NCBI RefSeq assembly: GCF_965641715.1
Contig: NZ_OZ282453.1
DNA from: Escherichia coli
GTDB lineage: Bacteria; Pseudomonadota; Gammaproteobacteria; Enterobacterales; Enterobacteriaceae
DNA length: 64,000 bases
Direction: 5' to 3' (one strand)
Position numbers and translations under genes: made by a program. Of this stretch, positions 4,331 to 52,645 are shown in pieces. Position 1 is the stretch's first letter; the number at the start of each line of letters is the position of its first letter. Under the pieces are notes generated by a model that had not been told where the DNA came from, made no database searches, and saw only the letters and a list, made by a program, of their open reading frames with translations.

Positions 4331-6970
4331 ATGCCTGACCATTCTCTTTTCCGACTGCGGGTACTTCCCTGCTGCGTTGCATTGGCAATGTCCGGGAGTT
4401 ATGTCAATGCCTGGGCTGAAGATGAAATTCAGTTTGATTCCCGTTTTCTGGAGTTAAAAGGCGACACAAAAATCGATCTGAAGCGATTTTCCAGCCAGGG
4501 TTATGTCGAGCCTGGGAAATACAATTTACAGGTTCAACTAAATAAACAGCCGCTGACGGAAGAATACGATATTTTCTGGTACGCCTCTGAGAACGATGCC
4601 AGTAAAACCTATGCCTGCCTGACGCCTGAACTGGTCGCGCAGTTTGGCTTAAAAGAGGATGTGGCAAAAAACCTGCAATGGATCCACGACGGCAAATGCC
4701 TGAAACCCGGTCAACTGGAAGGCATTGATATTAAAGCTGACCTGAGTCAGTCAGCGTTAGTCATTTCATTACCCCAGGCTTACCTTGAATATACCGACAT
4801 CAACTGGGATCCGCCTTCACGCTGGGATGACGGTATATCTGGTTTAATTGCTGACTACAGTATTACCGCCCAGACACGACATGAAGAAAATGGCGGGGAT
4901 GACAGCAATGAAATTAGCGGTAACGGGACGGTTGGGGTGAACCTCGGCGCATGGCGTCTTCGTGCCGACTGGCAGACTGATTATTTGCATAGTAAAAGCA
5001 ATGATGACGATGTTATCAACGGTGATGACACGCAAAAAAACTGGGAGTGGAGCCGCTACTACGCCTGGCGAGCCTTACCGTCGCTAAAAGCCAAACTTGG
5101 GCTTGGCGAAGACTACCTGAATTCTGATATTTTCGACGGCTTTAACTACGTGGGTGGCAGTATCAGCACCGACGATCAAATGTTGCCGCCGAATCTGCGC
5201 GGCTATGCGCCGGATATCTCCGGCGTGGCGCACACCACCGCGAAAGTGACCGTCAGCCAGATGGGCCGCGTGATTTACGAAACTCAGGTCCCGGCGGGGC
5301 CGTTCCGTATCCAGGATCTTGGCGATTCCGTCTCCGGTACGCTGCATATCCGCATTGAAGAGCAGAACGGTCAGGTGCAGGAATATGACATTAACACTGC
5401 GTCAATGCCGTTCCTGACCCGCCCCGGCCAGGTGCGCTATAAACTGATGATGGGCCGCCCGCAGGAGTGGGGGCACCACGTGGAAGGCGGTTTCTTCTCC
5501 GGCGGCGAAGCTTCCTGGGGGATTGCCAACGGCTGGTCGCTCTACGGCGGGGCGCTGGCAGATGAACACTATCAGTCGGCGGCGCTTGGCATCGGTCGCG
5601 ACCTGTCTGCCTTTGGCGCGGTCGCCTTTGATATCACCCACTCGCATACCCGCCTGGATAAAGAAACTGCCTACGGTAAAGGTTCACTGGACGGTAACTC
5701 GTTTCGCGTGAGCTATTCCAAAGACTTCGATGAACTGAACAGCCGCGTCACTTTTGCCGGATACCGCTTCTCGGAAGAGAACTTCATGACCATGAGCGAG
5801 TATCTCGATGCCAGCGACAGCGAAATGGTGCGCACCGGCAACGACAAAGAGATGTACACCGCCACCTATAACCAGAACTTCAGGGATGCCGGTGTGTCTG
5901 TTTATCTCAACTACACCCGCCATACCTACTGGGATCGCGACGAACAGACTAACTACAACATCATGCTCTCGCACTACTTCAACCTGGGCAGTATCCGCAA
6001 CATGAGCATTTCCATGACCGGATACCGCTACGAGTATGACAACCAGGCCGATAAAGGTGTGTACATATCGCTCAGTATGCCGTGGGGTGACAGCAGCACC
6101 ATCAGCTATAACGGCAACTACGGCAGCGGTTCGGACAGCAGCCAGGTGGGGTATTTCAGCCGTGTCGATGACGCAACCCATTACCAGTTGAACGTAGGCA
6201 CCAGCGACAATCACTCCAGCGTTGACGGTTATTACAGCCACGACGGATCGCTGGCGCAGGTCGATCTCAGCGCTAACTACCATGAAGGGCAGTACACCTC
6301 GGCGGGTATTTCCTTACAGGGCGGCGCGACGCTCACCGCACAAGGTGGCGCGCTCCACCGTACCCAGAATATGGGCGGCACGCGTCTGTTAATAGATGCC
6401 GATGGCGTGGTCGGTGTTCCGGTGGAAGGAAACGGTGCAGCGGTTTACACCAATATGTTCGGTAAGGCCGTGGTGGCAGACGTCAACAACTACTACCGCA
6501 ACCAGGCGTATATCGACCTAAACAACCTGCCGGAAAACGCCGAAGCCACCCAGTCCGTGGTGCAGGCCACCCTTACCGAAGGGGCCATTGGCTACCGTAA
6601 GTTCTCGGTTATCAGCGGGCAAAAAGCGATGGCGGTCCTGCGTCTGCAGGATGGTAGCTACCCGCCGTTTGGCGCGGAAGTGAAAAATGACAACGCGCAG
6701 AACGTTGGTCTGGTTGACGATGACGGCAACGTCTACCTCGCGGGCGTCAAACCTGGCGAGCATATGATCGTTTCATGGGGCGGTGTGGCCCACTGCGATA
6801 TTCATCTGCCTGACCCGCTGCCAGCCGATCTGTTCAATGGCCTGTTATTACCATGCCAGCAAACAGGGGCGATATCTCCTTCGATGCCTCATGAAATTAA
6901 GCCGATGATCCAGGAGCAGACCCAGCAGGTGATGCCAACGGAAGCACCGGTATCGGTATCCGCCAATTAA
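4331..6970 (+). CDS. yfcU: Fimbrial outer-membrane usher (intact)
   Basis: Long uninterrupted ORF. I chose the start at MPDHSLFRLRVLP to match the remembered K-12 YfcU N-terminus. The sequence has usher-typical composition (FDSRFL..., beta-barrel Y/G-rich). Confidence 0.88.
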   Translation: MPDHSLFRLRVLPCCVALAMSGSYVNAWAEDEIQFDSRFLELKGDTKIDLKRFSSQGYVEPGKYNLQVQLNKQPLTEEYDIFWYASENDASKTYACLTPELVAQFGLKEDVAKNLQWIHDGKCLKPGQLEGIDIKADLSQSALVISLPQAYLEYTDINWDPPSRWDDGISGLIADYSITAQTRHEENGGDDSNEISGNGTVGVNLGAWRLRADWQTDYLHSKSNDDDVINGDDTQKNWEWSRYYAWRALPSLKAKLGLGEDYLNSDIFDGFNYVGGSISTDDQMLPPNLRGYAPDISGVAHTTAKVTVSQMGRVIYETQVPAGPFRIQDLGDSVSGTLHIRIEEQNGQVQEYDINTASMPFLTRPGQVRYKLMMGRPQEWGHHVEGGFFSGGEASWGIANGWSLYGGALADEHYQSAALGIGRDLSAFGAVAFDITHSHTRLDKETAYGKGSLDGNSFRVSYSKDFDELNSRVTFAGYRFSEENFMTMSEYLDASDSEMVRTGNDKEMYTATYNQNFRDAGVSVYLNYTRHTYWDRDEQTNYNIMLSHYFNLGSIRNMSISMTGYRYEYDNQADKGVYISLSMPWGDSSTISYNGNYGSGSDSSQVGYFSRVDDATHYQLNVGTSDNHSSVDGYYSHDGSLAQVDLSANYHEGQYTSAGISLQGGATLTAQGGALHRTQNMGGTRLLIDADGVVGVPVEGNGAAVYTNMFGKAVVADVNNYYRNQAYIDLNNLPENAEATQSVVQATLTEGAIGYRKFSVISGQKAMAVLRLQDGSYPPFGAEVKNDNAQNVGLVDDDGNVYLAGVKPGEHMIVSWGGVAHCDIHLPDPLPADLFNGLLLPCQQTGAISPSMPHEIKPMIQEQTQQVMPTEAPVSVSAN

Positions 6971-6992
6971 TAACGTGATTAAGGAATGATCC

Positions 6993-7745
6993 ATGACGAA
7001 TCTATTTTGCTCTGCCAAAAAATCCACAATGTTGCTGGCATTGCTACTAACCACTGCCAGCCTGTCAGCACAGGCCTCTGTCACGCCAGACCGTACACGC
7101 CTGATTTTTAATGAGAGTGATAAATCAATCAGCGTCACGCTGCGTAATAACGACCCGAAAATGCCGTATCTGGCACAAAGCTGGATGGAAGATGAACAGG
7201 GTAACAGGATTAGCTCGCCACTGACGGCCCTGCCGCCGGTGCAGCGCATCGATTCCATGATGAACGGCCAGGTGAAGGTGCAGGGGATGCCGGATATCAA
7301 CAAGCTGCCTGCCGACCGCGAGAGCGTGTTCTACTTCAACGTGCGTGAAATTCCGCCGAAATCGAATAAACCCAACACGTTACAGATAGTGCTGCAAACG
7401 CGCATCAAGCTGTTCTGGCGACCAAAGGCGCTGGAAAACGTCAGCATGAAAAACCCGTGGCAGCATAAGGTGACCTTAACCCGCAGCGGTCAGGAGTTTA
7501 CCGTCAATAATCCTACGCCGTACTACGTGGTTATCAGTAACGCCAGCACGCAGAAAAATGGCAATCCGGCAGCGGGATTTTCCCCCATGGTGATATCGCC
7601 AAAAACCTCTGTGCCGTTAAAAGTCAAAATGGATAGCGTCCCGGTGCTGTCTTACGTCAACGACTATGGCGCACGGATGCCGCTGTATTTTAAATGTGGC
7701 GGTGATACATGCCAGGTGGATGTAGAGCAGAGCCGCAAAGGCTGA
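6993..7745 (+). CDS. yfcS: Periplasmic fimbrial chaperone (PapD-like)
   Basis: 250-aa ORF with a signal peptide and chaperone motifs (TRLIFNESDKSISVTLRN, FYFNVREIPP). Confidence 0.9.
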   Translation: MTNLFCSAKKSTMLLALLLTTASLSAQASVTPDRTRLIFNESDKSISVTLRNNDPKMPYLAQSWMEDEQGNRISSPLTALPPVQRIDSMMNGQVKVQGMPDINKLPADRESVFYFNVREIPPKSNKPNTLQIVLQTRIKLFWRPKALENVSMKNPWQHKVTLTRSGQEFTVNNPTPYYVVISNASTQKNGNPAAGFSPMVISPKTSVPLKVKMDSVPVLSYVNDYGARMPLYFKCGGDTCQVDVEQSRKG

Positions 7746-30666: not shown

Positions 30667-30677
30667 TTTAACACAAA

Positions 30678-30710
30678 AACCGCTAATGGTCAGATTAGCG
30701 GTTATTTTGT
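30678..30710. terminator. Shared hairpin between convergent gpU and invertase genes
   Basis: AACCGCTAAT-GGTCAG-ATTAGCGGTT followed by ATTTTGTTTT. It overlaps the invertase stop. Confidence 0.6.
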
Positions 30711-31289
30711 TTTCTGACTCTTCTCTATTGCTCCGCTTGATTCTCCTGCGGGGTGGTAACGATAAATCGTCGATGTACCAATGCCGTAAATTATTGCCAG
30801 TTGTTTTCTGTCGTGACCGTTTTTAATCAGCCTTGCTATTTGCTCATGCTGTTCTTTTGTCAGCTTCGGGCGACGTCCGCCTGTGCGCCCCCGTGCGCGC
30901 GCTGCTGCCAGTCCGGCCAGTGTACGTTCAACAATTAATTCACGTTCCATTTCAGCCAGGGCACCCATCACGTGGAAGAAAAAACGCCCCATTGGAGAAG
31001 ATGTATCTATGCTGTCGGTCAGACTGCGAAAATTAATCCCTCGCTCCCGTAGTTCCCCGACGAGAGAAATCAGATGTTTCATGCTTCGCCCGAGGCGATC
31101 CAGTTTCCAGACAACCAGCGTGTCACCTTTTTGAAGACGCTTTAAAGCGCGTTTTAATCCCGGTCGGTCTGTCTTTGTCCCGCTTAATTTATCTTCAAAT
31201 ATTTGTTCACATCCTGCACAAACAAGAGCGTTTCGTTGCAGGTCTGTATTCTGGTCATTTGTTGATACCCTTACATAGCCAATCAGCAC
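30702..31289 (-). CDS. Serine DNA invertase (Gin/Pin/Cin/Hin family)
   Basis: GTG start gives MLIGYVRVSTNDQNTDLQRNALVCAGCEQIFEDKLSG..., nearly collinear with remembered Mu Gin. A C-terminal HTH is present. Confidence 0.93.
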   Translation of the reverse strand: MLIGYVRVSTNDQNTDLQRNALVCAGCEQIFEDKLSGTKTDRPGLKRALKRLQKGDTLVVWKLDRLGRSMKHLISLVGELRERGINFRSLTDSIDTSSPMGRFFFHVMGALAEMERELIVERTLAGLAAARARGRTGGRRPKLTKEQHEQIARLIKNGHDRKQLAIIYGIGTSTIYRYHPAGESSGAIEKSQKTK

Positions 31290-31343
31290 GCTGAATCTCC
31301 CGTCCAAAAGCGTAAATCATGCCATGCAGGTCAGAAACGGCCA

Positions 31344-31373
31344 TTATCTAAAACCTCGGTTTACAGGAAACGG
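31344..31373. repeat. gix/cix-like crossover site (invertase-proximal)
   Basis: TTATCTAAAACCTCGGTTTACAGGAAACGG. Its reverse complement matches 34405-34434 at 27 of 30 positions and resembles the gix consensus TTCCTGTAAACCGAGGTTTTGGATAA. Confidence 0.85.
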
Positions 31374-32374
31374 TAAACAGGGCTGGTAACGCCGTGCAAA
31401 AAAATGGCGATACTTTGTCCGGTGGGCTTACTTTTGAAAATGACTCAATCCTTGCCTGGATTCGAAATACTGACTGGGCGAAGATTGGATTTAAAAATGA
31501 TGCCGATGGTGACACTGATTCATACATGTGGTTTGAGACAGGCGACAACGGCAATGAATATTTCAAATGGAGAAGCAAACAAAGCACCACAACAAAAGAC
31601 CTGATGAATCTTAAATGGGATGCTTTGTATGTTCTTGTTAAAGCTCTTTTCAGCAGTGAAGTAAAAATATCGACAGTCAATGCACTGAGGATATTTAATT
31701 CATCTTTTGGTGCCATTTTTCGCCGTTCTGAAGAATGCCTGCATATCATCCCTACACGAGAGAATGAGGGGGAAAATGGTAATATAGGGCCACTACGTCC
31801 CTTTACGCTTAATCTCAGAACTGGCCGCATAACTATGGGGCATGGTCTGGATGTTACAGGAGATATAACAACTAACGCCTGGGTGTATGCAAACAGGTTT
31901 GCTATTAATAGTGGCTCAACCTCATGGATTGATATGCGAAACCAGAATGTCATTTTTGGTAGAAACGCAGTATCAACAAGTTCTGCGCAGGCTTTGTTAA
32001 GACAAGACCATGCAGAACGCAAATTTTTTGTCGGTGGACTTGGTAACTACCAGTTTGGTTTTTACATGATTAATAACTCAAGGACAGCCAATGGCACCGA
32101 TGGTCAGGCGTACATGGACAATAACGGTAACTGGCTTTGTGGCTCGCAAGTTATTCCTGGCAACTATGGCAATTTTGATTCCAGATATGTGAGAGATGTT
32201 CGCCTGGGTACGCGAGTTGTTCAATTGATGGCGCGTGGTGGTCGTTATGAAAAAGCCGGACACGCAATTACCGGATTAAGAATCATTGGTGAAGTAGATG
32301 GCGATGATGAAGCCATCTTCAGGCCAATACAAAAATACATCAATGGCACATGGTATAACGTCGCACAGGTGTAA
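31352..32374 (+). CDS. Alternative tail-fibre C-terminal cassette (silent in this orientation; no own start)
   Basis: The frame is open from just after a stop at 31349. It reads [25 protein letters not shown]..., sharing LGLQETV with codons about 425-431 of the expressed fibre, and ends ...INGTWYNVAQV. Confidence 0.8.
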   Translation, partial: NLGLQETVNRAGNAVQKNGDTLSGGLTFENDSILAWIRNTDWAKIGFKNDADGDTDSYMWFETGDNGNEYFKWRSKQSTTTKDLMNLKWDALYVLVKALFSSEVKISTVNALRIFNSSFGAIFRRSEECLHIIPTRENEGENGNIGPLRPFTLNLRTGRITMGHGLDVTGDITTNAWVYANRFAINSGSTSWIDMRNQNVIFGRNAVSTSSAQALLRQDHAERKFFVGGLGNYQFGFYMINNSRTANGTDGQAYMDNNGNWLCGSQVIPGNYGNFDSRYVRDVRLGTRVVQLMARGGRYEKAGHAITGLRIIGEVDGDDEAIFRPIQKYINGTWYNVAQV

Positions 32375-32905
32375 ATGATGCAGCATTTAAAAAATATTAA
32401 GTCTGGAAATCCTAAAACGAAAGAACAATATCAGCTAACAAAGAATTTTGATGTTATCTGGTTATGGTCCGAAGACGATAAAAACTGGTATGAGGAAGTG
32501 AAAAACTTTCAGCCAGACACAATAAAGATTGTTTACGATGCAAATAATATTATTGTCGCCATCACTAAAGATGCCTCCACGCTTAACCCTGAAGGTTTTA
32601 GCGTCGTTGAGGTTCCTGATATTACAGCCAACCGCCGCGCTGATGATTCAGGAAAGTGGATGTTTAAGGATGGAGCTGTAGTTAAACGGATTTATACGGC
32701 AGACGAACAGCAACAACAAGGCGAATCACAAAAGGCCGCATTGCTTTCCGAAGCTGAATCAGTCATCCAGCCGCTGGAACGCGCTGTCAGGCTGAATATG
32801 GCAACAGACGAGGAACGCACACGACTGGAAGCATGGGAACGCTACAGTGTTCTGGTCAGCCGTGTGGATACGGCAAATCCTGAATGGCCACAAAAGCCTG
32901 AATAA
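32375..32905 (+). CDS. Tail-fibre assembly chaperone (partner of the silent cassette)
   Basis: 176-aa ORF, highly similar over its N-terminal roughly 100 aa (majority of residues identical by eye) to the opposing 177-aa chaperone. Confidence 0.85.
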
Positions 32906-32933
32906 AAATTAAGGCCCGCGATCGGGCCTTGTC

Positions 32934-33467
32934 TCATTCAGGTTGTTCGGGAAATGTTACTGGCAGGCTGGAGGTGTCTGTAGATTCGACTTTCTGCGCA
33001 TAGAGCATCCACTCGGTTAATTTTTGTTTATTCTCGTCGGAAATGATGCCCAGCCGTAGCTGTGAGTCCCATAGCTGGGTTTTATCCCTAACGAGCTGTA
33101 GCAGGCTTTGCTTTTCATTTTCCGCCTGCTGCCTCTGCTCTTCCTCGGTATAAGTTCGCTTTACCACTACGCCATCTTTGAACATCCATTTACCAGAAAT
33201 ATCAGCCCGGCGATTTGCTGTAATATCAGGAACCTCAACGACGCTTGCGCCTTCTGGATTAATTGCTGAAACATCCTTTTCAATACAAATAATAACGTTG
33301 TTGTGGTCATAGACCATTTTCAACGTATCAGGCTGAAAGTTCTTTTGTTCCTCATACCAGTTTTTCCCATCCTCTGTATAAAGCCATTTGATGTTAAATT
33401 GTTTCGTTAGCTGGTATTGCTCTTTTGTTTTAGGGTTGCCAGCAGTAATATTTTTTAAGTGCATCAT
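32934..33467 (-). CDS. Tail-fibre assembly chaperone (gpG/U-like, expressed orientation)
   Basis: 177-aa ORF immediately downstream of the tail-fibre gene. Confidence 0.87.
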
Positions 33468-33469
33468 AA

Positions 33470-35698
33470 TTAAATACTCCCCGCGTTATACCACGTCCCA
33501 TTAATGCAATACTGAATTGGCCTTGCCTGAGTTGTATCAATTAATTCATCACGGTTTCCGTTAACTGAACCCGTAACGACATAACCTGACCTGTCAGACC
33601 AGCCGGGACCATTCCATGTCTGAACAGATGACAGACCGCCAAGGCGAATACCTGTAATAAACCTTGAGTTACATTCTGCCTGCGTGTATGCACCAACATC
33701 TCCCGCAGAGGGTTTGCGGGTCGTGGTGTAAAACTCTGACCAGTTAGCCTCAAATCCATAACCATCACGCGCTGAACGATAAAAAATACCGCCGTTCCTG
33801 TAATTCACGCGGAACTGTACAGCAGGGCAGCTCCCCGTATTCATATTGAAGTGGAGGATTAATGTCGATGCACCGCTGATATCTGCATCATAAACACCGC
33901 TATTCCAGTTCCAGCCAACAGCTTTATCATTTGCAACCCTGCTTCCTGTTTGCCCTAAAGCAAATGCAGGCTGCTGGTTTTTCGTGTTGTAGTCTCTTCG
34001 CCAGCCAGGAGCATAAGCATCACCATGATTAATATAAGTGAATTGAGCGTTAGAGGTGCCGCCTCCGGTGGAAGTGCTTGGTGTTGTTACACGGATGGTC
34101 ATGGCACCTTTATTACCCATAACCTCAATAACGCAACCTGCAAGATGAATAGTTCCACAGCCAGTATCGGTAATAATTTTATTATTGCCGTATGACCATG
34201 AACATTTGCACATCCAGTATGGGTGATTGAATGCCCCTTGAGAATCCAGCCATTCAATCAATTGTGCCGTTGTCCAGTTCCCTGCCCCTGTACTAATAGC
34301 ACTGTGAAAAGCGCGACATGCACCAATATTTTTTGTGAAGGTATCTTTTCCTGGAATATCTGCGCCGTTCTGGTTTTTCTGTAATGCGCCAGAAGCCTGA
34401 TTTACCGTTTCTTGTAAACCGAGGTATTCGATAACGGCAGCAACGGTCGATTTCGCAAGAATATCCCGCCCGACTTTTGTCAGGGTTGCCAGGCTGGCGA
34501 CATCATTCCCCGTAAAATACGGAAACCTGTCTGCCGCAGTAGCAAGCCCGGCCAGCGCCGTCAGGGTGGCATCTTTCGGTTGCTTACCCGCAAGCGCGTT
34601 AGTCATGGTGGTCGCAAAATTCGGGTCGTTTCCCAGCGCCGCCGCTAACTCGTTCAGCGTATTCAGTGCGTCAGGTGACGAATCTACAAGGGCGGCAATC
34701 GCAGCCATAACGAAAGCCGTGCTTGCGATTTGGGTATTATTCGTTCCCTGTCGCGCAGTTGGCGTTGTTGGCGTTCCGGTCAGCGCAGGACTGTTTAAGG
34801 GCGCTTTCTTGTTCGTTTCATCCATTACCGCCTTAACCGCTTTCGATGTCGCGGCCAGTGTTTCAGACGTGCTGTTGGTGGCACTACTGAGCTGGACTAT
34901 CCCTTTTTGTGCCGTCGTGGCGTCCTGAGCGGTATATTTTGCGTTAGCAAGGTCATACGCGGCCTTTACTGCTTTCGGCGTTGCAGCCTGCGTTTCAGAC
35001 GTGCTGTTGGTGGCGCTACTGAGCTGAACTATCCCTTTTCGCGCAGTGGTAGCGTCCTGTGCGGTGTATTTGCCATTAGCCAGGTCATATGCCGCCTTAA
35101 CAGCCTTTGGCGTTGCCGCAAGCGTTTCAGACGTGCTGTTAGTGGCGCTGCTAAGTTGAACAAAGCCTTTTGCGGTCAGCGAGGCGTCCGGGTGACGTCG
35201 TGAGTGTTCATGCTCTTTCAGTTTGTCATCCACGTAATCCACTGTGGCCATTACCATGGTGTTATCCACGGTAAGCGCCACGGTGGCAGTGCTGGATACG
35301 GTCAGAATGGTGCGAAATGTTTGTGCACGTCCTGACCCTTCGGCAACGGTTGGCTTGTAACTTTCGGCAGTATTGCCTACTGCGATTAAATCGCCGTGCT
35401 CATCAAACACACCAATTTCCCGGATCCAGAATCCGCCCGTTTCTGGAGGAATAACCAGCTCCGCAATAATGCGGTTCTGATGTGTTGCGTCCAGGATGAC
35501 GCGATTAACAGTGTGTCGCCACACCTCATGCACCAGACGGGTCTGCTTACTGTCTGGTGTGGGCAACGTGCCGCCACCGTCGCCCACGGCCATATGAGTC
35601 AGGCGGACAGGCTTACCATCTGGCGCGGCTGCCTGAGCTAATTTTTTTGCACCCGTATCGGTGATAACGGTTTTAAATTTTCGTGTTGTGGTACTCAT
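33470..35698 (-). CDS. Tail fibre protein (gpH-like; constant N-part plus currently joined variable C-part)
   Basis: 742-aa ORF with three 44-aa phage tail-fibre repeats ([15 protein letters not shown]..AATPKAVK). The gix site lies inside at codons about 422-431. Confidence 0.92.
34405..34434. repeat. gix/cix-like crossover site inside the tail-fibre gene
   Basis: CCGTTTCTTGTAAACCGAGGTATTCGATAA, which encodes IEYLGLQET on the minus strand. Confidence 0.85.
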
Positions 35699-43819: not shown

Positions 43820-45571
43820 ATGATTCAGGACGCTTTTGTGCGCCAGCGTGCGCGACAACTTTACTGGCAGGGTTATCCGCCCGCTGAAATATCACGTCTG
43901 ATGGGAATAAACCCGAACACGATTTATGCGTGGAAAAAACGCGACCAGTGGGATGAAACGCCACCCGTGCAGCGTGTCACGCAGTCCATCGATGCGCGCC
44001 TCATCCAGCTTACTGAAAAACAGAATAAAACAGGCGGTGACTTTAAGGAAATAGACCTGCTGACCCGGCAGCTTAAAAAACTGCATGATGGCCAGCCGGA
44101 TGCGACGGCCACAGGAAAGAAAGGCCGGGCGAAAAAGCTTAAAAATCATTTCACGCCGGAACAGATTGCCGCACTGCGGGAAAAAATCATCAGCAGGCTG
44201 GAGTGGCATCAGCGGGGCTGGTTTGACTCCCTGACCCTTTGCAGGGAAGCCGGGATACGTAACAGGATGATCCTGAAATCCCGACAGATTGGGGCGACCT
44301 GGTATTTTGCACAGGAAGCACTGCTGATGGCGCTGCGTGACGATGTGGCGCAACCTTACCAGCGTAACCAGATTTTTTTGTCTGCGTCGCGTCGTCAGGC
44401 GTTCCAGTTTAAAAGCATTATTCAGAAGGCTGCATCTGAAGTTGATGTGGAGCTGAAAGGGGGCGATAAAATCATCCTCTCCAACGGCGCAGAGCTGCAT
44501 TTTCTCGGCACTTCTGCTGCGACGGCACAGTCCTACACAGGCAATTTTTATTTTGATGAATTTTTCTGGGTCAGTCGCTTTGCTGAACTGCGCAAGGTGG
44601 CTGGCGCTATGGCAACCCTCAGCGGGCTGCGACGCACCTACTTCTCCACGCCATCAACCGAAACGCACGAGGCATACGTCTACTGGAACGGCGACCGCTG
44701 GAACGAGAAAAAGGCCGCGCATAAACGCCAGCGTTTTTCTGTGGACTGGAAAACGCTGCATAACGGGCTTATCTGCCCCGACCGGACGTGGCGGCAAATT
44801 GTCACGCTGGAAGATGTGGTTAATCACGGCTGGAAACACACCGATATTGATGAAATTCGTGATGAAAACACCGAAGACGAGTTCCGCAATCTCTATATGT
44901 GTGAGTTTGTCCGCGAAGGGGAATCGGCATTTAACCTGAATATCCTGATTGGCTGCGGTGTTGACGGATACGACGACTGGAAAGACTGGAAACCTTTTGC
45001 TCCCCGCCCGATGGGGAATCGTCCGGTATGGATTGGGTATGACGCAAACGGCAGCAGTGGAAACGGCGACAGTGGCGCGGTGTCCGTGGTGGTTCCTCCG
45101 GCTGTTCCTGGTGGCCGTTTTCGAACGGTGGAGACGCGACGCGTTCAGGGGCTGGAGTTTGAAGAACAGGCCAGAGTCATTGAAGAGTTCACGTGTCGCT
45201 ACAACGTGGAACACATCGGCATTGATGTGACGGGCGGGAACGGGGAGGCTGTTTATCAGATAGTGAAACGGTTTTTCCCTGCCGCTATTCCGTACACCTT
45301 CACGCTGTCATCAAAACGGTCGCTGGTACTGAAAATGCTGCAAATAATGCGTGCCGGGCGGTGGGAATACGATCGCGCCGAACGCGAGCTGGTCGCGGCC
45401 TTTAACGCCGTGCGTAAGGTGAAAACACCGGGCGGCTTTATCACTTACGAAACGGACCGCGCGAGGGGGATCAGCCACGGCGACCTTGCGTGGGCAACCA
45501 TGCTTGCTGTCATTAACGAACCAATTGGCGGCGAAGGAGAAAACGAGCGTTTCACGGTTATGGAGTTCTGA
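43820..45571 (+). CDS. Terminase large (ATPase) subunit gpP-like
   Basis: 583-aa ORF with an N-terminal HTH-like segment and a Walker-type region (ILKSRQIGATWYF). It is divergent from O, as in P2. Confidence 0.9.
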   Translation: MIQDAFVRQRARQLYWQGYPPAEISRLMGINPNTIYAWKKRDQWDETPPVQRVTQSIDARLIQLTEKQNKTGGDFKEIDLLTRQLKKLHDGQPDATATGKKGRAKKLKNHFTPEQIAALREKIISRLEWHQRGWFDSLTLCREAGIRNRMILKSRQIGATWYFAQEALLMALRDDVAQPYQRNQIFLSASRRQAFQFKSIIQKAASEVDVELKGGDKIILSNGAELHFLGTSAATAQSYTGNFYFDEFFWVSRFAELRKVAGAMATLSGLRRTYFSTPSTETHEAYVYWNGDRWNEKKAAHKRQRFSVDWKTLHNGLICPDRTWRQIVTLEDVVNHGWKHTDIDEIRDENTEDEFRNLYMCEFVREGESAFNLNILIGCGVDGYDDWKDWKPFAPRPMGNRPVWIGYDANGSSGNGDSGAVSVVVPPAVPGGRFRTVETRRVQGLEFEEQARVIEEFTCRYNVEHIGIDVTGGNGEAVYQIVKRFFPAAIPYTFTLSSKRSLVLKMLQIMRAGRWEYDRAERELVAAFNAVRKVKTPGGFITYETDRARGISHGDLAWATMLAVINEPIGGEGENERFTVMEF

Positions 45572-46617
45572 TGAGCAGAAAAAATAAAAAAGTGCGCATG
45601 AGTTCACGCATTGATCTCGCTGATGCGCTCAGGAAAGAATCGTCGCTCAGTGCATTCACATTTGATGGTCCTTACCGCCTGACCGGGCATGACCTGCTGG
45701 ACAATATGTACTGTGCTGATAACGGGCGGTGGTATGAAACCCCGGTGGACTGGTACGGTCTGGCAAGAGCCGCCCGGCAAACGTCCTGGCATCAGTCTGC
45801 GCTTTACTTTAAGCGCAATGTATTGCTCGGTTGCTACATCCCGCACCCGCTGCTTTCCCGGCAGGATTTCTCGGCGCTGGCGCTGGACTGGTTTGTGTTC
45901 GGTAACGCATTCCTTGAGCTTCGGAGCAATATGCTCGGCGAACCACTTAAATTACGGCACGCACTGGCGAAATACATGCGACGCGGAAGCGATCTTGAAT
46001 CATGGTGGTATGTGCAGGATGGCAAGGACGCGTTTCAGTTTCGCCCTGGCAAAGTGTGCCACCTGATGAATCCGGACATTAACCAGGAAATTTACGGCAT
46101 GCCGGAATATCTTGGCGCATTACTCTCGGCCAGCCTGTCTCATTCGGCGGACATGTTCAGAAAACTGTACTACGACAATGGATCCCACGCCGGGTGCATC
46201 ATCTACATCGGTGCAGCGCAGGTAAACCGCGAAAGCATGGACTCCCTGAAGGAAACGCTACAGGGTGCGCGTGGTGGTGGTGCATTTAAAAACGTGCTCA
46301 TTCACGCGCCCAACGGGGGCAAAGAAGGTGTGCAAATTTTGCCGTTCCAGCAGATCACCGCAAAGGATGAGTTCATGAATGTTAAGGCGGCATCCCGTGA
46401 TGATGTGCTGGCTGCGCACCGCGTTCCGCCGCAACTGATGGGGGCGATGCCGGGCGAAAAAAGTGCGTTTGGTGATGTGGAGAAGGCAGCGCGGGTTTAC
46501 GCAATTAACGAGCTGATGCCCGTCATGGAGGCCATGAAGCATATCAATGACTGGCTTGGCGAAGAGGTGATCCGCTTTAACCCTTACGCACTGCTGGACA
46601 CCCAGCCCACATCCTGA
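45571..46617 (+). CDS. Portal protein gpQ-like
   Basis: 348-aa ORF with an ATGA overlap with P. P2 order is P then Q, next to cos. Confidence 0.9.
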   Translation: MSRKNKKVRMSSRIDLADALRKESSLSAFTFDGPYRLTGHDLLDNMYCADNGRWYETPVDWYGLARAARQTSWHQSALYFKRNVLLGCYIPHPLLSRQDFSALALDWFVFGNAFLELRSNMLGEPLKLRHALAKYMRRGSDLESWWYVQDGKDAFQFRPGKVCHLMNPDINQEIYGMPEYLGALLSASLSHSADMFRKLYYDNGSHAGCIIYIGAAQVNRESMDSLKETLQGARGGGAFKNVLIHAPNGGKEGVQILPFQQITAKDEFMNVKAASRDDVLAAHRVPPQLMGAMPGEKSAFGDVEKAARVYAINELMPVMEAMKHINDWLGEEVIRFNPYALLDTQPTS

Positions 46618-47041: not shown

Positions 47042-47079
47042 TTGTGCAAATTTGTGCACTATTGTGCGGTGTATAAAAT
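47042..47079 (+). promoter_or_regulatory. Three phased TTGTGC(A/G) repeats plus TATAAAAT, a candidate phd-doc promoter/operator
   Basis: TTGTGCA at 47042, TTGTGCA at 47052 and TTGTGCG at 47062 have an exact 10-bp period. TATAAA is at 47072-47077, about 65-80 bp upstream of the phd start. Confidence 0.45.
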
Positions 47080-47141
47080 GAAAATATGGCGGTGTTATTA
47101 CTGCCCAACAAGCCGTTATACTTACGTTATGGGCGTGCATA

Positions 47142-47498
47142 ATGGAAATGAATATGAAAACTGTAACTGATGATGAATTTCGTGAGAACCTGAGTGAAAT
47201 TCTGGATTACCTTTCTTCCGGTGGCAGTGTCGTTATCACGGCGCAGGGAGGGAAGGATGTTGTTCTTGCTGGTTCTGATCTTAGTCCTGAAATACGGGCT
47301 GTCCTTGGCAAAACCAAAAAACTGCGGGATCAAATAAACAAAATGAAGCAACCACTCTTAATAAATGCAGTGAGAGATCTGGAAAAACGTCATCCAGCTC
47401 TTGTCGCACAGAGAAAAAAAGGATTGTCTTTTGAAGATGCAATGAAGCGTACAAGAGAAAAACATGCGGATATCATTAAAAAGCTTGAGGATAACTGA
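47142..47498 (+). CDS. phd: Phd/YefM-family antitoxin with extended C-terminal region (start may be the ATG at 47154)
   Basis: MKTVTDDEFRENLSEILDYLSSGGSVVITAQGGKDVVL is a Phd/YefM-type N-domain. The stop overlaps the doc start (TGATG). Confidence 0.8.
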   Translation: MEMNMKTVTDDEFRENLSEILDYLSSGGSVVITAQGGKDVVLAGSDLSPEIRAVLGKTKKLRDQINKMKQPLLINAVRDLEKRHPALVAQRKKGLSFEDAMKRTREKHADIIKKLEDN

Positions 47499-47905
47499 TG
47501 GACATAGTGTTTTTGTCAAAAGAACAAGTAGAACGTATCCATGCTGAAACTTTACCCCAGAGCGGAAATGCCAATGACGGGCTACTTGAAGGTGCTTTAA
47601 ATCGCGTCAGGACACTACACTACTATGAAGGGGTTGATGATATTCATGCTCTGGCTGCTATGTATTTGATTGGTATAGCCAAGGCTCATGCCTTTCATGA
47701 TGGGAATAAACGCACAGCTTTTCAGGCTGCATCAATATTTTTAATGATGAACTCTTCCGAACTTTCAAACTCCCTGCTGCTGGTTAAATTAACGGTGTTT
47801 TCAGCAATGGGGATAGCTACCCTTGAGGAAGTTACCTTTGCTTTGAAATTGCTGTCTGATTATGGCAATGAATTAATCAGCGACTACGAAGAAGATTATA
47901 TTTAA
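47498..47905 (+). CDS. doc: Doc (death-on-curing) Fic-fold kinase toxin
   Basis: 135-aa ORF. HAFHDGNKRTA matches the Doc motif H-x-F-x-D-x-N-K-R-T. Confidence 0.88.
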   Translation: MDIVFLSKEQVERIHAETLPQSGNANDGLLEGALNRVRTLHYYEGVDDIHALAAMYLIGIAKAHAFHDGNKRTAFQAASIFLMMNSSELSNSLLLVKLTVFSAMGIATLEEVTFALKLLSDYGNELISDYEEDYI

Positions 47906-48071
47906 TGCTGGCATACTCTGTCGTGTTAAGACAACAGCCTTTGCGGAGACAGGGCAGGGTGCCAGACTTGCCCGCAGCGCGTCTGACATGAGCAGTTATT
48001 CATCTTTTTTATTGTTTTTCTCCATGCAGGGCGACAGTGCGCCCCGATAAAATTAAAAGCCGTCAAATTCG

Positions 48072-48407
48072 TCATTCATGCGTTTTTTCTTCATGGTCTG
48101 TCACTTCTCTCCTGATAACTTCATTGCACAAATCAACGCACTCATTGCAGATGTAAACAGACGGTCCGGCAATCACCTTTGTGACTTCGTACTGGGATTT
48201 ATTGCAGAAGCTGCAATAAATCGTCTCCTCACCTGAAGTCCATGTTTTGCTGGTTTCGCCAGACATCAGTTGTTTGAGGTCTTTTTCACGACGAAGAACT
48301 ATCTGGCCACATTCAGCTATTTTTTGGATGTTGACATTTTCTTCTTTCGCCAGCGCTTCCATCCGCTCAATCAGTCGCTGCGCTTTTTCTCTGTCAATGC
48401 GTTGCAT
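48072..48407 (-). CDS. Stand-alone ClpX N-terminal zinc-binding-domain (ZBD) protein with a coiled-coil N-terminus and no AAA+ module
   Basis: 111-aa [42 protein letters not shown] compares with E. coli Clp[46 protein letters not shown] acts as the SD. Confidence 0.85.
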
Positions 48408-48470
48408 TGTGTCCCCCTTGTTTATGTTCCCGGGTTAAAGTCATCAGGGCGGATGCGCCCTGATGTTGTG

Positions 48471-48782
48471 TTATTCGGGAAATAACGCCCGGATATTTCC
48501 GGCCATCTGACTGGTTATCTGTGCGGTTGATACTGGCTGTGACGCGGGGCGTTCTGTCCTGGTTTGTGTCACTGATAACGCTTCATCATCAGCCCATGCA
48601 GCCAGTCGGTAAGCCTCTGCCGGATTCATTTTCAGAAGTGCCAGCCCGGCCAGAAAAGCCACGCGTTGGCCGCTTTTGCGCGCTTCTGGTGTAAGGCTGT
48701 CCAGCCAGGCGCATGCTTCACCTTCGTTCTTGACGGCGGCGGGCTTCAGATAGAAACTTATCCGTCTGGTTGGAGTCGTCAT
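48471..48782 (-). CDS. parR: ParR-like centromere-binding adaptor (RHH)
   Basis: Start MTTPTRRISFYLKP...LDSLTPEARKSGQRVAFLAGLALL parallels R1 ParR (RRTIAFKLNP...LDSIPQGERSRLNRAALTAGLALY). AAGGAG overlaps the parM stop. Confidence 0.8.
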   Translation of the reverse strand: MTTPTRRISFYLKPAAVKNEGEACAWLDSLTPEARKSGQRVAFLAGLALLKMNPAEAYRLAAWADDEALSVTQTRTERPASQPVSTAQITSQMAGNIRALFPE

Positions 48783-48786
48783 TGGT

Positions 48787-49746
48787 TTACTCCTTGTCCA
48801 TTGCGTACAGCCCATTAACCAGAGCAAACTGTGGCACCCCGTCCGCGATGAAAGTCGCATTAACTCCGCAGGCTTCGCGGATAGCGGGTGCCACAATCTC
48901 CGCCCCGCCACCGACAACCATCACCCGCCCGTAACCCGAAAAAACCGCCAGCGCGCGGATCACGCGTTGTTTCAGTGTTTCTTCCTTTTCACGAATAACC
49001 GCCATCAGGCTGGCGTAATGCGCGTCATTGTGGATGTGCTGGCGCAACCAGGCTTCATCATGGCGATGTTCGATAATGGTATTGGCGATGTGGTGACTGA
49101 TACGCATACCGTTAGTGGCCATCACCGACAGTACGGCATCGGCCATCAGGGAAACGCCTACGTGTGGATCGCAAAACACCTGGCTGATACCTGCCAGTTG
49201 CCCCTGAACCTTTGCCACATCCAGTGTGGTTCCGCCCAAATCCACAATCAGCAGGGATTCAAGCGGACTCATGTCAGCCAGTGCTTTAAAGCCAGCCGGA
49301 ATGGATTCAGGCATAACCCGTACGTTACGGATAGTGAATGTTTCGCCGTTCTGGTACTCCACCGGGCGCATAACGTTCGCTTTTTTGCGGCTGATGTTGG
49401 CCATGTCCGGCTGTGCGTTTGTGTCGAAATACTCGCTCAATGGCAGGGTGACAACCACATCCACCTCCTGTGGCGTGATGCCTGATTTGACCAGCGCGTG
49501 ATGAATGGCAATGACATTCACATCGCTGTACTGGTATTGCGTGTCGGTCGTCTGGACAAAGCGATCGCTGACCGGATCAAAACCATAGCGCACGCCATCA
49601 AGCATGTAGTTCGCGGGCTGCGAGCCACCGAACGGCGCAGACCATTCCGACTTGAAGCTGTTCGGGCTGATGGCGTTGCGGCGTTCGCCGTTCTCAGTCC
49701 ATGCCAGCTTGATGTTGGTGGAGCCGTCGTCGATACAAATTTTCAT
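48787..49746 (-). CDS. parM: ParM/StbA actin-like segregation ATPase
   Basis: 319-aa ORF. MKICIDDGSTNIKLAW...ISPNSFK...YQYSDVNVIAIHHAL...VMPESIPAG...DLGGTTLD...GGGAE is collinear with R1 ParM. Confidence 0.9.
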   Translation of the reverse strand: MKICIDDGSTNIKLAWTENGERRNAISPNSFKSEWSAPFGGSQPANYMLDGVRYGFDPVSDRFVQTTDTQYQYSDVNVIAIHHALVKSGITPQEVDVVVTLPLSEYFDTNAQPDMANISRKKANVMRPVEYQNGETFTIRNVRVMPESIPAGFKALADMSPLESLLIVDLGGTTLDVAKVQGQLAGISQVFCDPHVGVSLMADAVLSVMATNGMRISHHIANTIIEHRHDEAWLRQHIHNDAHYASLMAVIREKEETLKQRVIRALAVFSGYGRVMVVGGGAEIVAPAIREACGVNATFIADGVPQFALVNGLYAMDKE

Positions 49747-49783: not shown

Positions 49784-49871
49784 GGATTTTTAAATCCCGC
49801 TTTTGCCTGTTTTGTGCGCGCTTCATATATCGCGGCACGTTTTTTGCTCATTTATGGGATTTGTGAATCCC
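49784..49871. promoter_or_regulatory. Two GGATT..AATCC palindromes upstream of parM (candidate parC/operator)
   Basis: GGATTT-TT-AAATCC at 49784-49797 and GGGATT-TGTG-AATCCC at 49856-49871. The second lies inside the 3' end of the gpA ORF. Confidence 0.3.
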
Positions 49872-52645
49872 GTTTCTGTCTGTTTTTTGTTTCCACTGGT
49901 CAGGCCACCCCGCAGCAGGTCTGCTTTGCGGCTGGCGCGTTCAGTGGTTTCACTGATTCTCTGTGCGTGCTCTGCGTCGCGGATGGCGCGCAGCATGTCA
50001 GAAAGCACGGTAACGGGTGTTTTCATGGTGTTCTGGTCCTGCTGAAGTGTGGATGCCAGGCGTGCGGCGGCTTCAGGGTCTGATGCCCCCAGCTGTGCCA
50101 GATAGCTGGCGACCGGGTTATGGCGGATCTCCGTGCTGCTTACGCCATGATTACGGCTCAGGCGCTGCCAGAGCTGCGTGATTCGGCTGTCCGGGCGGGT
50201 ATCCGGTTTGCGTACAATTTCAAATCCCTGCGGTGCAATGATGCTGCCGTCAACGTACAGACTGCCGCCCCGTAACAGGTGCTGCATCTGTTGTTCACCG
50301 ATATGCAGGCCGAGAGATTCAGCAGACTCCCGCCATTCTTTAGCGAGTAATTCGTGGTTATCAGGCAAAGGCCGTGGCTGTTTGCGGCTCTGTGTCCAGC
50401 TCTGCATTTCATCACTGCTGTTTTTTGCCTGTTTGTCACGAAGCGAACGCATCAGCGCCCGGCGTTCGTGCCGTTTCAGTGAGCGCATCCATTCGTTCAC
50501 GTCAACGCCGTCAGGAAGCTGCGGCCACGGTGCTGGCCGTTCTTTCGACTGTTCTGTCCCGCTGTTGCCTGTTTCCTGTACACGGGGACAGTTATTGCCA
50601 CGAGTCCAAGGGGCGGCAGGGCCGCCCTGAAGGTCAAAACCATTTTCGCGGGCGCTGTCTTCCGTTTCCGGTTTACGTCTTACCAGTTTCCAGTTATCCG
50701 GATGCGTGCACACACGGGAGGATTCCCCGATGAGTGGTGACCAGATCCCGTAAATCTGTACGCTCTGTTCGCCGTAATCATTCAGCTCATCTGCGAGGTC
50801 GTAGGCGGTGCGAATCAGGTAGTCTTTGCGTGGAACAAGTACGCCGCCCTGTTTTTCAATGTAGGTGGCAAAACACCCGGCATCGGCGGCAGCGAGTACC
50901 GCATCCATTGCGTCATCTTTCAGTCGTTGCGGGCCTTCCGGGTTGCGTGCCATCTGGCTGGCAAGGCGGCGCAGTTCACGCCACACCTGACGGGAGGGGA
51001 TGCCAAAGAACTGGAACTGGCGGACCCGATGAAGGCGCGCCCAGCCGATGGCGCGCTCCACACTCTCGGCCATTGATTTTCCGGTTTCGTGGTCAACGCG
51101 TGGCTTGCCCGTTTTCGGGTCGATGCCATCCACGGCGCGGCTGTCCAGGTTCTTTCCGATGTAGGTCGCGATATAGCTGGTTGGTGTGCCTTTTGAGCCG
51201 TCGACATACTCCGCCTTAAAGCGCGGAGTAATATCATTGCCCAGCTCGTGGCGGTCTTCCTGAATGGCAATATCGCGGGTGATGGCCACGATGCTGTCGA
51301 TTTCTTCCGGATGAGCAAAGACCATCATATGCCAGTGCACGGTGCCGTCATGGTGAGGCTCCACCGTGCGGATGCCATACCAGCGAAGACCGTCGCGGTT
51401 CAGTTTTTTGCGGACCGCCGCAAAAAACGTGTTAACCAGGTAATCGCTGGAGTCGCGCATGGTGGCCCCGTTCCATTTGGGATTCGGATGACCGTTCTCT
51501 GTTGTGGCGTGGTATTTTGACGGGCAGGTGACAGTCAGAAACACCGCTTTGTCGCCACGGGCTTCGGCCAGAAGTTCCAGCCCCTTCATGGTGGCCATCA
51601 TTTCTGCCTTACGGTGAACCGGGTTACTTACTCCCGCGTAATACACCGTCTCGAGATCAATCGTGAACCCGTCTTCATTTTCCAGCATGAAACTTTTCAG
51701 GAAATCGCGTGTTTTCTCGCGCTGTGCGCGAAACTCGCTTAACGCGTCCTGGCTCAGATAGGGCGATGTTTTTCTGGAAACCAGACAGGCGGCGCGGAGT
51801 TGTTCTTCTCTCCACTCGCAACGTAACAGCCACAGTTTGCGTTTCCACCATTCTGCACAGGTCAGGCGAAGGATTGCGCCCGGCAGCAGCTCCGTGTCCG
51901 GTTCGTTCCTCTGGTCTTTGTCTGTTGTCAGTGCGTCATAATGTGGAGGCATGGCGTGCAGGTGTAACGCCATGCGGGCCAGCATCTGATACGCCTTCAG
52001 CGTTACATCCATGGTCAGTTCGCCATCGGTCGCGCCAAAGCCATCGCAGAGTTTTTCGAAGGTGCTGCTGAACATCGCCGCCGTCATGGTGGCCAGTGTC
52101 TGTATCTGGTGTTTGTTGAGCTGCGGCAGGTAAAGCAAATCGTCCAGGCGTTCGCGTCCGGCAAGGGAGCGATAACCCTGTGTCAGCCAGCGGTGATCGG
52201 TGCGCTCCAGACGTTCGAATATTTTGCGCAGGTTTCCGCGCGCGTAGCGTTCAGCCTGCCAGCTCTTTTTGCCTTTCTGACGATCGGCTTCCTGTTTTTT
52301 GCGCAGGAAGGAGAGGTGGCGAATAAGCGGATCGCGCAGATAGGACGGCAGCAGGCGCAGCGAGGCCATGGCTTCATCCACCGCGCCGCGTGCCTGTTTT
52401 CTGGCATCTCCTGCCAGTGTGATGGTTTTGTCCTGTTTTTCCTGTGCGTCCAGGCTTTTATTAATCAGGTTGCCCAGCGGCGTTGCGGAGAACGCCGCAT
52501 CAGCCATTTCCTGGCGGTGCTCGTTCTCTACCCGGTAGGCATCCAGCCAGGAGGAAAGCGCGGATTCAGGAGCGGGGATCCCCGTTCCTTCACGCCCCAC
52601 TGCGTGGCGCGGTTGTTGCCAGTCCCTGATGTACTCTGCCGTCAT
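49823..52645 (-). CDS. Rolling-circle replication initiator endonuclease, gpA-like (940 aa, long C-terminal extension)
   Basis: It contains the HUH-type metal motif (DGTVHWHMMVF) and has the position of P2 A at the end of the early operon. Confidence 0.85.
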   Translation of the reverse strand: MTAEYIRDWQQPRHAVGREGTGIPAPESALSSWLDAYRVENEHRQEMADAAFSATPLGNLINKSLDAQEKQDKTITLAGDARKQARGAVDEAMASLRLLPSYLRDPLIRHLSFLRKKQEADRQKGKKSWQAERYARGNLRKIFERLERTDHRWLTQGYRSLAGRERLDDLLYLPQLNKHQIQTLATMTAAMFSSTFEKLCDGFGATDGELTMDVTLKAYQMLARMALHLHAMPPHYDALTTDKDQRNEPDTELLPGAILRLTCAEWWKRKLWLLRCEWREEQLRAACLVSRKTSPYLSQDALSEFRAQREKTRDFLKSFMLENEDGFTIDLETVYYAGVSNPVHRKAEMMATMKGLELLAEARGDKAVFLTVTCPSKYHATTENGHPNPKWNGATMRDSSDYLVNTFFAAVRKKLNRDGLRWYGIRTVEPHHDGTVHWHMMVFAHPEEIDSIVAITRDIAIQEDRHELGNDITPRFKAEYVDGSKGTPTSYIATYIGKNLDSRAVDGIDPKTGKPRVDHETGKSMAESVERAIGWARLHRVRQFQFFGIPSRQVWRELRRLASQMARNPEGPQRLKDDAMDAVLAAADAGCFATYIEKQGGVLVPRKDYLIRTAYDLADELNDYGEQSVQIYGIWSPLIGESSRVCTHPDNWKLVRRKPETEDSARENGFDLQGGPAAPWTRGNNCPRVQETGNSGTEQSKERPAPWPQLPDGVDVNEWMRSLKRHERRALMRSLRDKQAKNSSDEMQSWTQSRKQPRPLPDNHELLAKEWRESAESLGLHIGEQQMQHLLRGGSLYVDGSIIAPQGFEIVRKPDTRPDSRITQLWQRLSRNHGVSSTEIRHNPVASYLAQLGASDPEAAARLASTLQQDQNTMKTPVTVLSDMLRAIRDAEHAQRISETTERASRKADLLRGGLTSGNKKQTETGFTNPINEQKTCRDI

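Follow-up and report, generated by a model that had tools for sequence, protein, structure and literature searches.

Few phage proteins retune the proteases of their hosts; among these, T4 PinA and T7 Gp4.5 act on Lon. SPO1 Gp53 acts on ClpCP in an adaptor-like manner (PMC6873191), and the anti-adaptors IraP, IraM and IraD block the delivery of sigma-S to ClpXP by RssB (bioRxiv 10.1101/2023.01.07.523045). In ClpX, residues F16 and I46 of the zinc-binding domain (ZBD) belong to a hydrophobic pocket, which overlaps with the site of lambda O and with the region of SspB, RssB and trigger factor, and the degradation of lambda O requires this domain (PMC7804408). ClpXP also has a place in the Phd-Doc toxin-antitoxin system of phage P1, whose antitoxin Phd is one of its substrates (Lehnherr and Yarmolinsky 1995, as cited in PMC4803016). 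In this work, we analyzed a stretch of 64,000 nucleotides of Escherichia coli DNA (assembly GCF_965641715.1, contig NZ_OZ282453.1; hereafter the window) with a P88-like prophage (Xuanwuvirus, Peduoviridae) integrated beside pdxB, in which a Phd-Doc pair is convergent with a gene encoding a stand-alone, ClpX-type ZBD protein of 111 residues.

The Phd-Doc pair of the window resembles that of P1 in being a two-gene operon with a stop/start overlap, in the HxFx(D/N)xNKR motif of Doc and, probably, in the N-terminal Phd/YefM fold of the antitoxin. It differs in that P1 Phd has 73 residues and the window antitoxin 118, of which only the N-terminal 40 are common to both while the C-terminal half is unrelated, and in that the P1 pair sits on a phage-plasmid whereas the window pair lies in a hotspot of an integrated P2-like prophage. 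The ZBD protein, in turn, has the C4 zinc ribbon and the pocket of the ClpX ZBD, but it is devoid of the AAA+ module and carries its ZBD C-terminal to a helical hairpin specific to the family. The original prediction for this locus had tied both elements together, proposing that a free ZBD could tune ClpXP and might stabilize Phd and set the threshold for Doc, or else block ClpX-dependent steps of competing phages. Our results indicate instead that the ZBD gene and phd-doc are, very probably, two independent cargo modules brought side by side by cassette shuffling. The explanation as a whole, in which the modules are independent and the ZBD protein would be a mimic or decoy of the ClpX ZBD, is the one that we moderately favor.

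The two modules are seldom found together. The joint arrangement occurs in 17 of 5,426 complete E. coli genomes, all of them 99-100% identical over 1,351 bp; it represents a single evolutionary event. Among 43 P88-like IMG/VR loci that carry the ZBD gene (L005-L047, the distant L046 being left out), phd-doc is present in four. Overall, ~90% of the ZBD genes are without a phd-doc neighbor, as seen in Salmonella, in contig L062, in most P88-like prophages and in p09EL50, a phage-plasmid of ~109 kb, SSU5-like by gene content, in which no Doc homologue was detected in the 90 kb examined and whose annotated toxin-antitoxin pair is of the DUF1778/GNAT type. The junctions are informative as well. In strain ETEC4090 (L002) the ZBD gene is followed by an intact gene of 174 codons, of which a 5' stub (the spacer and the first codons) remains in the window, and the homology between both loci breaks ~25 bp past the doc stop codon (~47930). 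The phd-doc cassette thus replaced an earlier cargo beside a resident ZBD gene, and it is in this way, by substitution of the genes formerly placed after the ZBD gene, that the present adjacency arose. In strain UPEC132 and in IMG/VR contig L064, an identical phd-doc is retained in loci where the ZBD gene, parR and most of parM have been deleted, and the same truncated match pattern as in UPEC132 was found in a second complete genome, strain 300444; evidently, the toxin-antitoxin pair is maintained without the ZBD protein.

The relatives of Doc lead to the same picture. Proteins 85-87% identical to the window Doc are encoded, together with an antitoxin and at the same cos-proximal position, in P2-like prophages of Citrobacter youngae and Klebsiella, where the pair adjoins a methyltransferase-like gene and no ZBD gene is present; seven further viral contigs with more remote relatives of Doc likewise lack a ZBD gene. 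The scan of genome contigs with Doc gave only two loci and the number of lineages is accordingly small: two independent ones carry both modules (the window type and contig L046, see below), and at least seven of the Doc subfamily are without the ZBD gene. Co-occurrence conserved across independent lineages was not found, and the functional link of the original prediction is not borne out.

As for the ZBD protein, it matches the Pfam family zf-C4_ClpX (PF06689) over residues 64-99 with 62.6 bits (cut-off 27). No AAA+ module was found in it, the ClpX model TIGR00382 (cut-off 371) reaching 49 bits, over model positions 6-53 only, and by this score and its length the protein is not itself a ClpX, in agreement with the identity first proposed. 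The ZBD spans residues 62-102, with four cysteines (Cys65, Cys68, Cys87 and Cys90) predicted to coordinate zinc, and is followed by a charged tail of 9 residues; the domain had been rightly placed near the C-terminus, but it does not form the C-terminal 40 residues as such. Its core is identical to the matching 40-residue core of E. coli ClpX (YCSFC...IIREEI) at 30 of 40 positions (75%), which falls short of the near identity that had been claimed. The AlphaFold2 model has a mean pLDDT of 79.5, with values of ~86-91 in the ZBD, and predicts a hairpin of two helices (residues 6-23 and 27-48) and a disordered linker (residues 53-59) in the N-terminal part, for which a coiled coil had been proposed. 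Foldseek superposed the modelled ZBD on the ClpX structures 2DS5, 2DS6 and 2DS8 with an rmsd of 0.7-0.8 Å, a target TM-score of 0.87-0.91 and 72% identity; a search with the whole model matched ZBD structures alone, the hairpin being without a match. The pocket residues F16 and I46 of ClpX correspond to F67 and V97 in the window protein, the latter being V or I in its relatives and I in most of them. The ICDEC motif of ClpX has become ICNEC in the P2-like members, whereas members of the phage-plasmid type keep ICDEC. PHROG 6797, a family of unknown function, matches the protein along its whole length; PADLOC defence models gave no match for it. In GenBank and nr, many stand-alone ZBD proteins (e.g. 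P88 gp19, encoded at 2845-3177 of L001) go under the name "carboxylate--amine ligase", a label that appears to be a propagated misannotation; RefSeq now names them "ClpX C4-type zinc finger protein".

The ZBD gene was detected in 189 (megablast) or 221 (blastn) of the complete E. coli genomes, with 127 chromosomal and 105 plasmid copies, so that the family is present in prophages and phage-plasmids of ~4% of them. Full-length relatives of ~50% identity are found on 95 plasmids; those of them that were examined or recognized proved to be phage-plasmids, either P1/D6-like (~90 kb) or of the ~109-kb type, and the family extends to other Escherichia and Salmonella prophages of the P2-like kind. 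The gene is always part of a block of small genes, early or accessory, that run in one direction, yet comparison of the downstream genes across P88-like loci and phage-plasmids revealed no conserved partner. The following gene is of at least four types unrelated to one another, or there is none; no Pfam family was recognized in these genes except Ea22 (one gene further along) and a winged helix-turn-helix (wHTH) protein in L046, and the phage-plasmid genes in this position (173 and 259 residues) are not homologous to the 174-residue gene of ETEC4090. A search for the hairpin joined to other domains gave only 10 matches among 1.84 billion representatives, confined to this family, and every intact family member carries the ZBD; one further match, to a protein of 1,212 residues in six short stretches, was taken as a coiled-coil artefact and left uninspected.

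Within this family, the ZBD cores are identical to that of E. coli ClpX at 29-35 of 40 positions. Distant members share 24-31 of 40 core residues with the window protein and, in the N-terminal part, 14-24 of ~60 (~23-40%). At the DNA level, on the other hand, the phage-borne gene has diverged from host clpX: the 146 nucleotides encoding the ZBD did not detect clpX by blastn. Since the ZBDs are closer to ClpX than to each other, and yet clpX is unmatched at the DNA level, the resemblance has been kept at the protein level. This pattern of the aligned family suggests selected mimicry of ClpX, and a core that stays near ClpX with its pocket conserved is what would be expected of a mimic bound to keep the partners of ClpX itself. 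A recent capture of, or gene conversion from, host clpX was considered and rejected given the lack of a DNA-level match. Short proteins of other kinds, in which an N-terminal ZBD is likewise without an AAA+ module, are found in further viral contigs, with 153 residues (L048, 1-462) and 86 residues (L054, 5980-6240), and therefore stand-alone ZBDs arose more than once in phages. Several large phages encode a full-length ClpX.

The competition of a free ZBD with ClpX, an idea already contained in the original prediction, is plausible and somewhat strengthened by the fold match, the F67/V97 pocket and the closeness to host ClpX. Specifically, the ZBD protein may be a soluble decoy of the ClpX N-domain that selectively cuts ZBD-dependent recognition by ClpXP, a proposal drawn from sequence and model that we hold with slightly less than even confidence. 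The protein would provide a single-gene accessory function to temperate enterobacterial phages, and its gene points in the direction of the early genes gpA, parM and parR. It would form dimers of the ZBD type, and possibly higher, multivalent oligomers through the hairpin; its conserved pocket would soak up proteins that need the ClpX ZBD, such as the adaptors SspB and RssB and substrates like lambda O, and ZBD-dependent ClpXP proteolysis would be selectively damped as a result. Possible purposes are the protection of phage proteins, a change in sigma-S or SOS turnover, the blocking of protease-triggered abortive infection or the exclusion of ClpX-dependent phages such as Mu. With the family present in ~4% of genomes, any influence on the turnover of sigma-S, of SOS or of toxin-antitoxin proteins could be relevant to the physiology of lysogens.

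T4 PinA, T7 Gp4.5 and SPO1 Gp53 are, like the ZBD protein in its proposed role, small early or accessory phage proteins that retune an ATP-dependent protease of the host; they are no copies of a protease domain, whereas the ZBD protein, judging from its sequence, would mimic the docking domain for substrates and adaptors. The Ira proteins offer a parallel in that one class of ClpXP substrates is affected while the rest of proteolysis is spared, but they bind RssB through unrelated folds, whereas the ZBD protein, by resembling ClpX, would be a competitor, potentially for several adaptors and substrates at once. If true, phages would have in this soluble docking domain a new strategy of great simplicity, by which the adaptor- and ZBD-dependent branch of ClpXP is inhibited with bulk quality control left intact. 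It is tempting to go one step further and regard PHROG 6797 as an unrecognized class of phage ClpX N-domain mimics that reprogram host ClpXP in a selective manner through titration of ZBD-docking adaptors and substrates and that, where a ClpXP-labile antitoxin is also present (window type, L046, D6-like), tie toxin release to phage early expression, be it incidentally or adaptively; this extended proposal is speculative and we find it rather doubtful.

Several other explanations were weighed against this one. A direct coupling of the free ZBD to the adjacent Phd-Doc, shielding Phd from ClpXP and so setting the threshold for Doc release, is the least supported and improbable. It can draw on the ClpXP lability of P1 Phd and on three observations that weigh against the independence of the modules. 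In the divergent P2-like contig L046, whose gpA, terminase and portal proteins are 31-35% identical to those of the window (ZBD protein 35% by tblastn, Doc 58%), a full-length ZBD homologue lies directly beside phd-doc, in divergent orientation. The D6-like phage-plasmid pEc1079_2, in which the pairing recurs at the level of the replicon, carries a P1-type phd-doc 9 kb from the ZBD gene. Finally, a naive count within P88-like elements looks enriched, with 17 joint cases against ~1.7 expected. The latter figure was discounted because the 17 cases represent one clonal arrangement. P1-like plasmids probably have phd-doc as a rule, in which case pEc1079_2 would be uninformative. L046 looks like an array of two cassettes: two copies of a 47-nt repeat (5697-5743 and 6974-7020) bound a cassette of ZBD plus wHTH genes, one of them separating it from phd-doc, and in Salmonella relatives of this phage (gpA 81%, portal 93%) the ZBD gene is by itself, flanked by related direct repeats with a length of 71 nt (in L058, 4891-4961 and 5390-5460, 97% identical). 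The hotspot repeat contains a CTCGCCGC...GCGGCGAG hairpin and may be a cassette-boundary or recombination element. Both L046 and pEc1079_2 may nonetheless leave room for some functional interplay between the ZBD protein and Phd-Doc. Against a coupling stand, besides the distribution of ZBD and Doc genes without each other and the stability of phd-doc after loss of the ZBD gene, the convergent orientation of both elements as separate cassettes and transcription units and the restriction of the similarity with P1 Phd to the N-terminal 40 residues of the antitoxin. To our knowledge, a need for the ZBD in Phd recognition has not been established. Adjacency within a cassette hotspot is, in any case, no evidence of a functional system.

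The same decoy biochemistry might serve inter-phage warfare or anti-defence, which we consider unlikely, though less so than a coupling to Phd-Doc. A decoy expressed from the prophage would block ClpX-dependent steps of invading phages, such as remodelling of the Mu transpososome, or its early lytic expression would stop protease-triggered toxin-antitoxin systems and abortive infection, as T7 Gp4.5 does for Lon. The richness of the hotspot in anti-phage genes (PMC9122126), the presence of the family within blocks of early accessory genes in three kinds of temperate phage and the mimicry signature of the ZBD cores are in favor of such purposes; on the other side, the protein matches no PADLOC defence model, its gene has no conserved partner and stabilization of lambda O would not obviously harm lambda. 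Another role conceivable from the two-domain architecture with a flexible linker seen in the model is that of an adaptor handle, which would enter ClpX ZBD dimers by exchange, or else attach to ClpX, and bring hairpin-bound targets to ClpXP for destruction. A fast-evolving, family-specific N-terminal domain is what a target-binding module would look like, and SPO1 Gp53 provides a precedent for an adaptor-like phage protein, albeit for ClpCP. However, ClpX ZBD dimers are stable and formed within one hexamer, their exchange is not known and no target can be proposed, which leaves this possibility very improbable. ZBD-like folds reportedly serve unrelated binding jobs, as in the anti-sigma factor CsfB, and this weighs against a decoy. 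The fold could accordingly have been re-used as a generic zinc-ribbon module for dimerization or binding apart from ClpXP, for instance in the regulation of transcription factors of phage or host, and in some contexts the ZBD protein is indeed encoded among regulators and small DNA-binding proteins. It is hard to explain in this way, without a shared set of ligands, that divergent members are nearer to host ClpX than to each other and keep the adaptor pocket, and we regard a re-used zinc ribbon as quite unlikely.

The combination of phd-doc and ZBD gene had been thought to be undescribed. The exact arrangement is in fact already contained in Table S5 of Rousset et al. 2022 (P2 hotspot cargo, PMC9122126), at the same gpA-portal locus and under the accessions that RefSeq assigns to these very proteins. 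The part of that table covered here has 43 occurrences of zf-C4_ClpX, 489 of StbA and 9 of this arrangement, proportions that resemble the present counts. The arrangement figures there as a table entry only; the main text of that paper makes no mention of ClpX, and to this extent the earlier statement stands. Our literature search for a characterized stand-alone phage ZBD protein, or for a ZBD acting in trans, found none; the ZBD protein belongs to an uncharacterized family and would add a new variant to the phage proteins that modulate host proteases.

Several lines of evidence confirmed the identity of Doc and supported that of Phd. The antitoxin matches PhdYeFM_antitox (PF02604) over residues 5-42 only (E=7.8e-7, 29.2 bits, gathering score 29.8), scores 16.6 bits with TIGR01552 (cut-off 20.8) and matches PHROG 375, "Phd-like antitoxin", with E=4e-5; a PDB sequence search with it gave no match. 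Its C-terminal half is family-specific and ends in LSFEDAMKRTREKHADIIKKLEDN, a motif kept in the L046 homologue. Doc scores above the cut-offs of Pfam Fic (PF02661; E=3.5e-11, 44.2 bits, cut-off 24) and of TIGR01550 DOC_P1 (53.6 bits, cut-off 38.65), and matches PHROG 577, "Doc-like toxin", and the P1 Doc structures 3K33 and 3DD7 (E=6e-13). Its residues 64-73, HAFHDGNKRT, align with HIFNDANKRT of P1 Doc and conform to HxFx(D/N)(A/G)NKR. The phd stop codon TGA (47496-47498) overlaps the doc start codon ATG (47498-47500) in a TGATG sequence, and the order of antitoxin gene followed by doc is likewise found in L046, L080 and L081. In the PADLOC defence models, no match was obtained for Phd and Doc matched weakly the candidate systems PDC-S23 and PDC-M59B only. 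By its sequence, then, phd-doc is an ordinary, self-contained type II toxin-antitoxin cassette that adds to a known kind. By homology to P1 Doc, the toxin would be a kinase of the Fic fold that acts on EF-Tu and thereby blocks translation, and the antitoxin, produced from the translationally coupled upstream gene, would neutralize it; the cassette probably serves prophage retention, abortive infection or both.

Table 1 Features of the gpA-portal interval in the window (positions on the 64,000-nucleotide stretch).
Feature	Position	Strand	Remarks
Portal gene	45571..46617	+	Pfam Phage_portal; left hotspot border
phd-doc cassette as mobile unit	47070..47930	+	Leader, phd and doc, ~860 bp; left junction at the end of backbone homology, right junction at the start of L002 homology
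Phd/YefM-like antitoxin, 118 aa	47142..47498	+	Probable N-terminal Phd fold; RefSeq start 47154, 114 aa, named Phd/YefM antitoxin
Doc toxin, 135 aa	47498..47905	+	Fic fold, motif HAFHDGNKRT
49-codon ORF (orf49)	47926..48075	-	Spacer and 5' end of the 174-aa gene, cut by the phd-doc cassette
Stand-alone ClpX-ZBD protein, 111 aa, PHROG 6797	48072..48407	-	Helical hairpin, linker, C4 zinc-binding domain, charged tail
10-bp G+C-rich hairpin	48442..48465	-	In the 63-nt parR-ZBD spacer; dG -22.9 kcal/mol, z = -5.0
parR-like (Plasmid_stab_B)	48471..48782	-	RefSeq coordinates; mechanical ORF reaches 48917
parM (actin-like plasmid segregation ATPase)	48787..49746	-	Between parR and gpA
gpA replication endonuclease	49823..52645	-	Right hotspot border; strand common to parM, parR and the ZBD gene

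The three cargo open reading frames (ORFs), namely phd, doc and the ZBD gene, have the positions and strands originally predicted (Table 1), and their location agrees with the published hotspot of P2-like phages between gpA and the portal gene (PMC9122126). The assumption of a P2 setting was thus right as to the hotspot; the phage itself is P88-like rather than P2, and parR and parM intervene between the ZBD gene and gpA. Across the interval, terminase and portal genes are followed by phd and doc and then, on the opposite strand, by the ZBD gene, parR, parM, gpA and the early operon back to cox. The cos-proximal backbone runs on to ~47067, near which the homology with other P88-like phages stops. 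In this conserved backbone, just left of the phd-doc junction, the sequence TTGTGC(A/G) is repeated three times with a spacing of ~10-11 bp (47042-47068). The ORF of 49 codons overlaps the stop codon of the ZBD gene (ATGA) and was rejected as a gene, being probably a remnant of the 174-residue gene that is intact in ETEC4090. On its sense strand, the hairpin between parR and the ZBD gene has no U tract, the opposite strand having a T-rich tail, and it could act as an attenuator or stabilizer.

The parMR segment is a ParM/ParR plasmid-partition module (48471-49746) borne by an integrated P2-like prophage. Segments of the P88 type occur in 1,306 of the 5,426 complete E. coli genomes, with 1,451 of 1,453 copies being chromosomal. 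The possibility that the ZBD gene is part of this module was rejected: only ~14% of P88-type parMR loci have it, and the relatives in Salmonella and L062 are without parMR. In L046, a phage without parM, the ZBD gene has just upstream of it a parR-like remnant (5730-5927; 66 codons with 40% identity by tblastn), which hints that ZBD and parR genes once travelled together. Elsewhere in the prophage, the tail-fibre region (30670-35091) differs from the RM10740 prophage, which is otherwise 97-98% identical and has an insertion of the IS66 family at this place.

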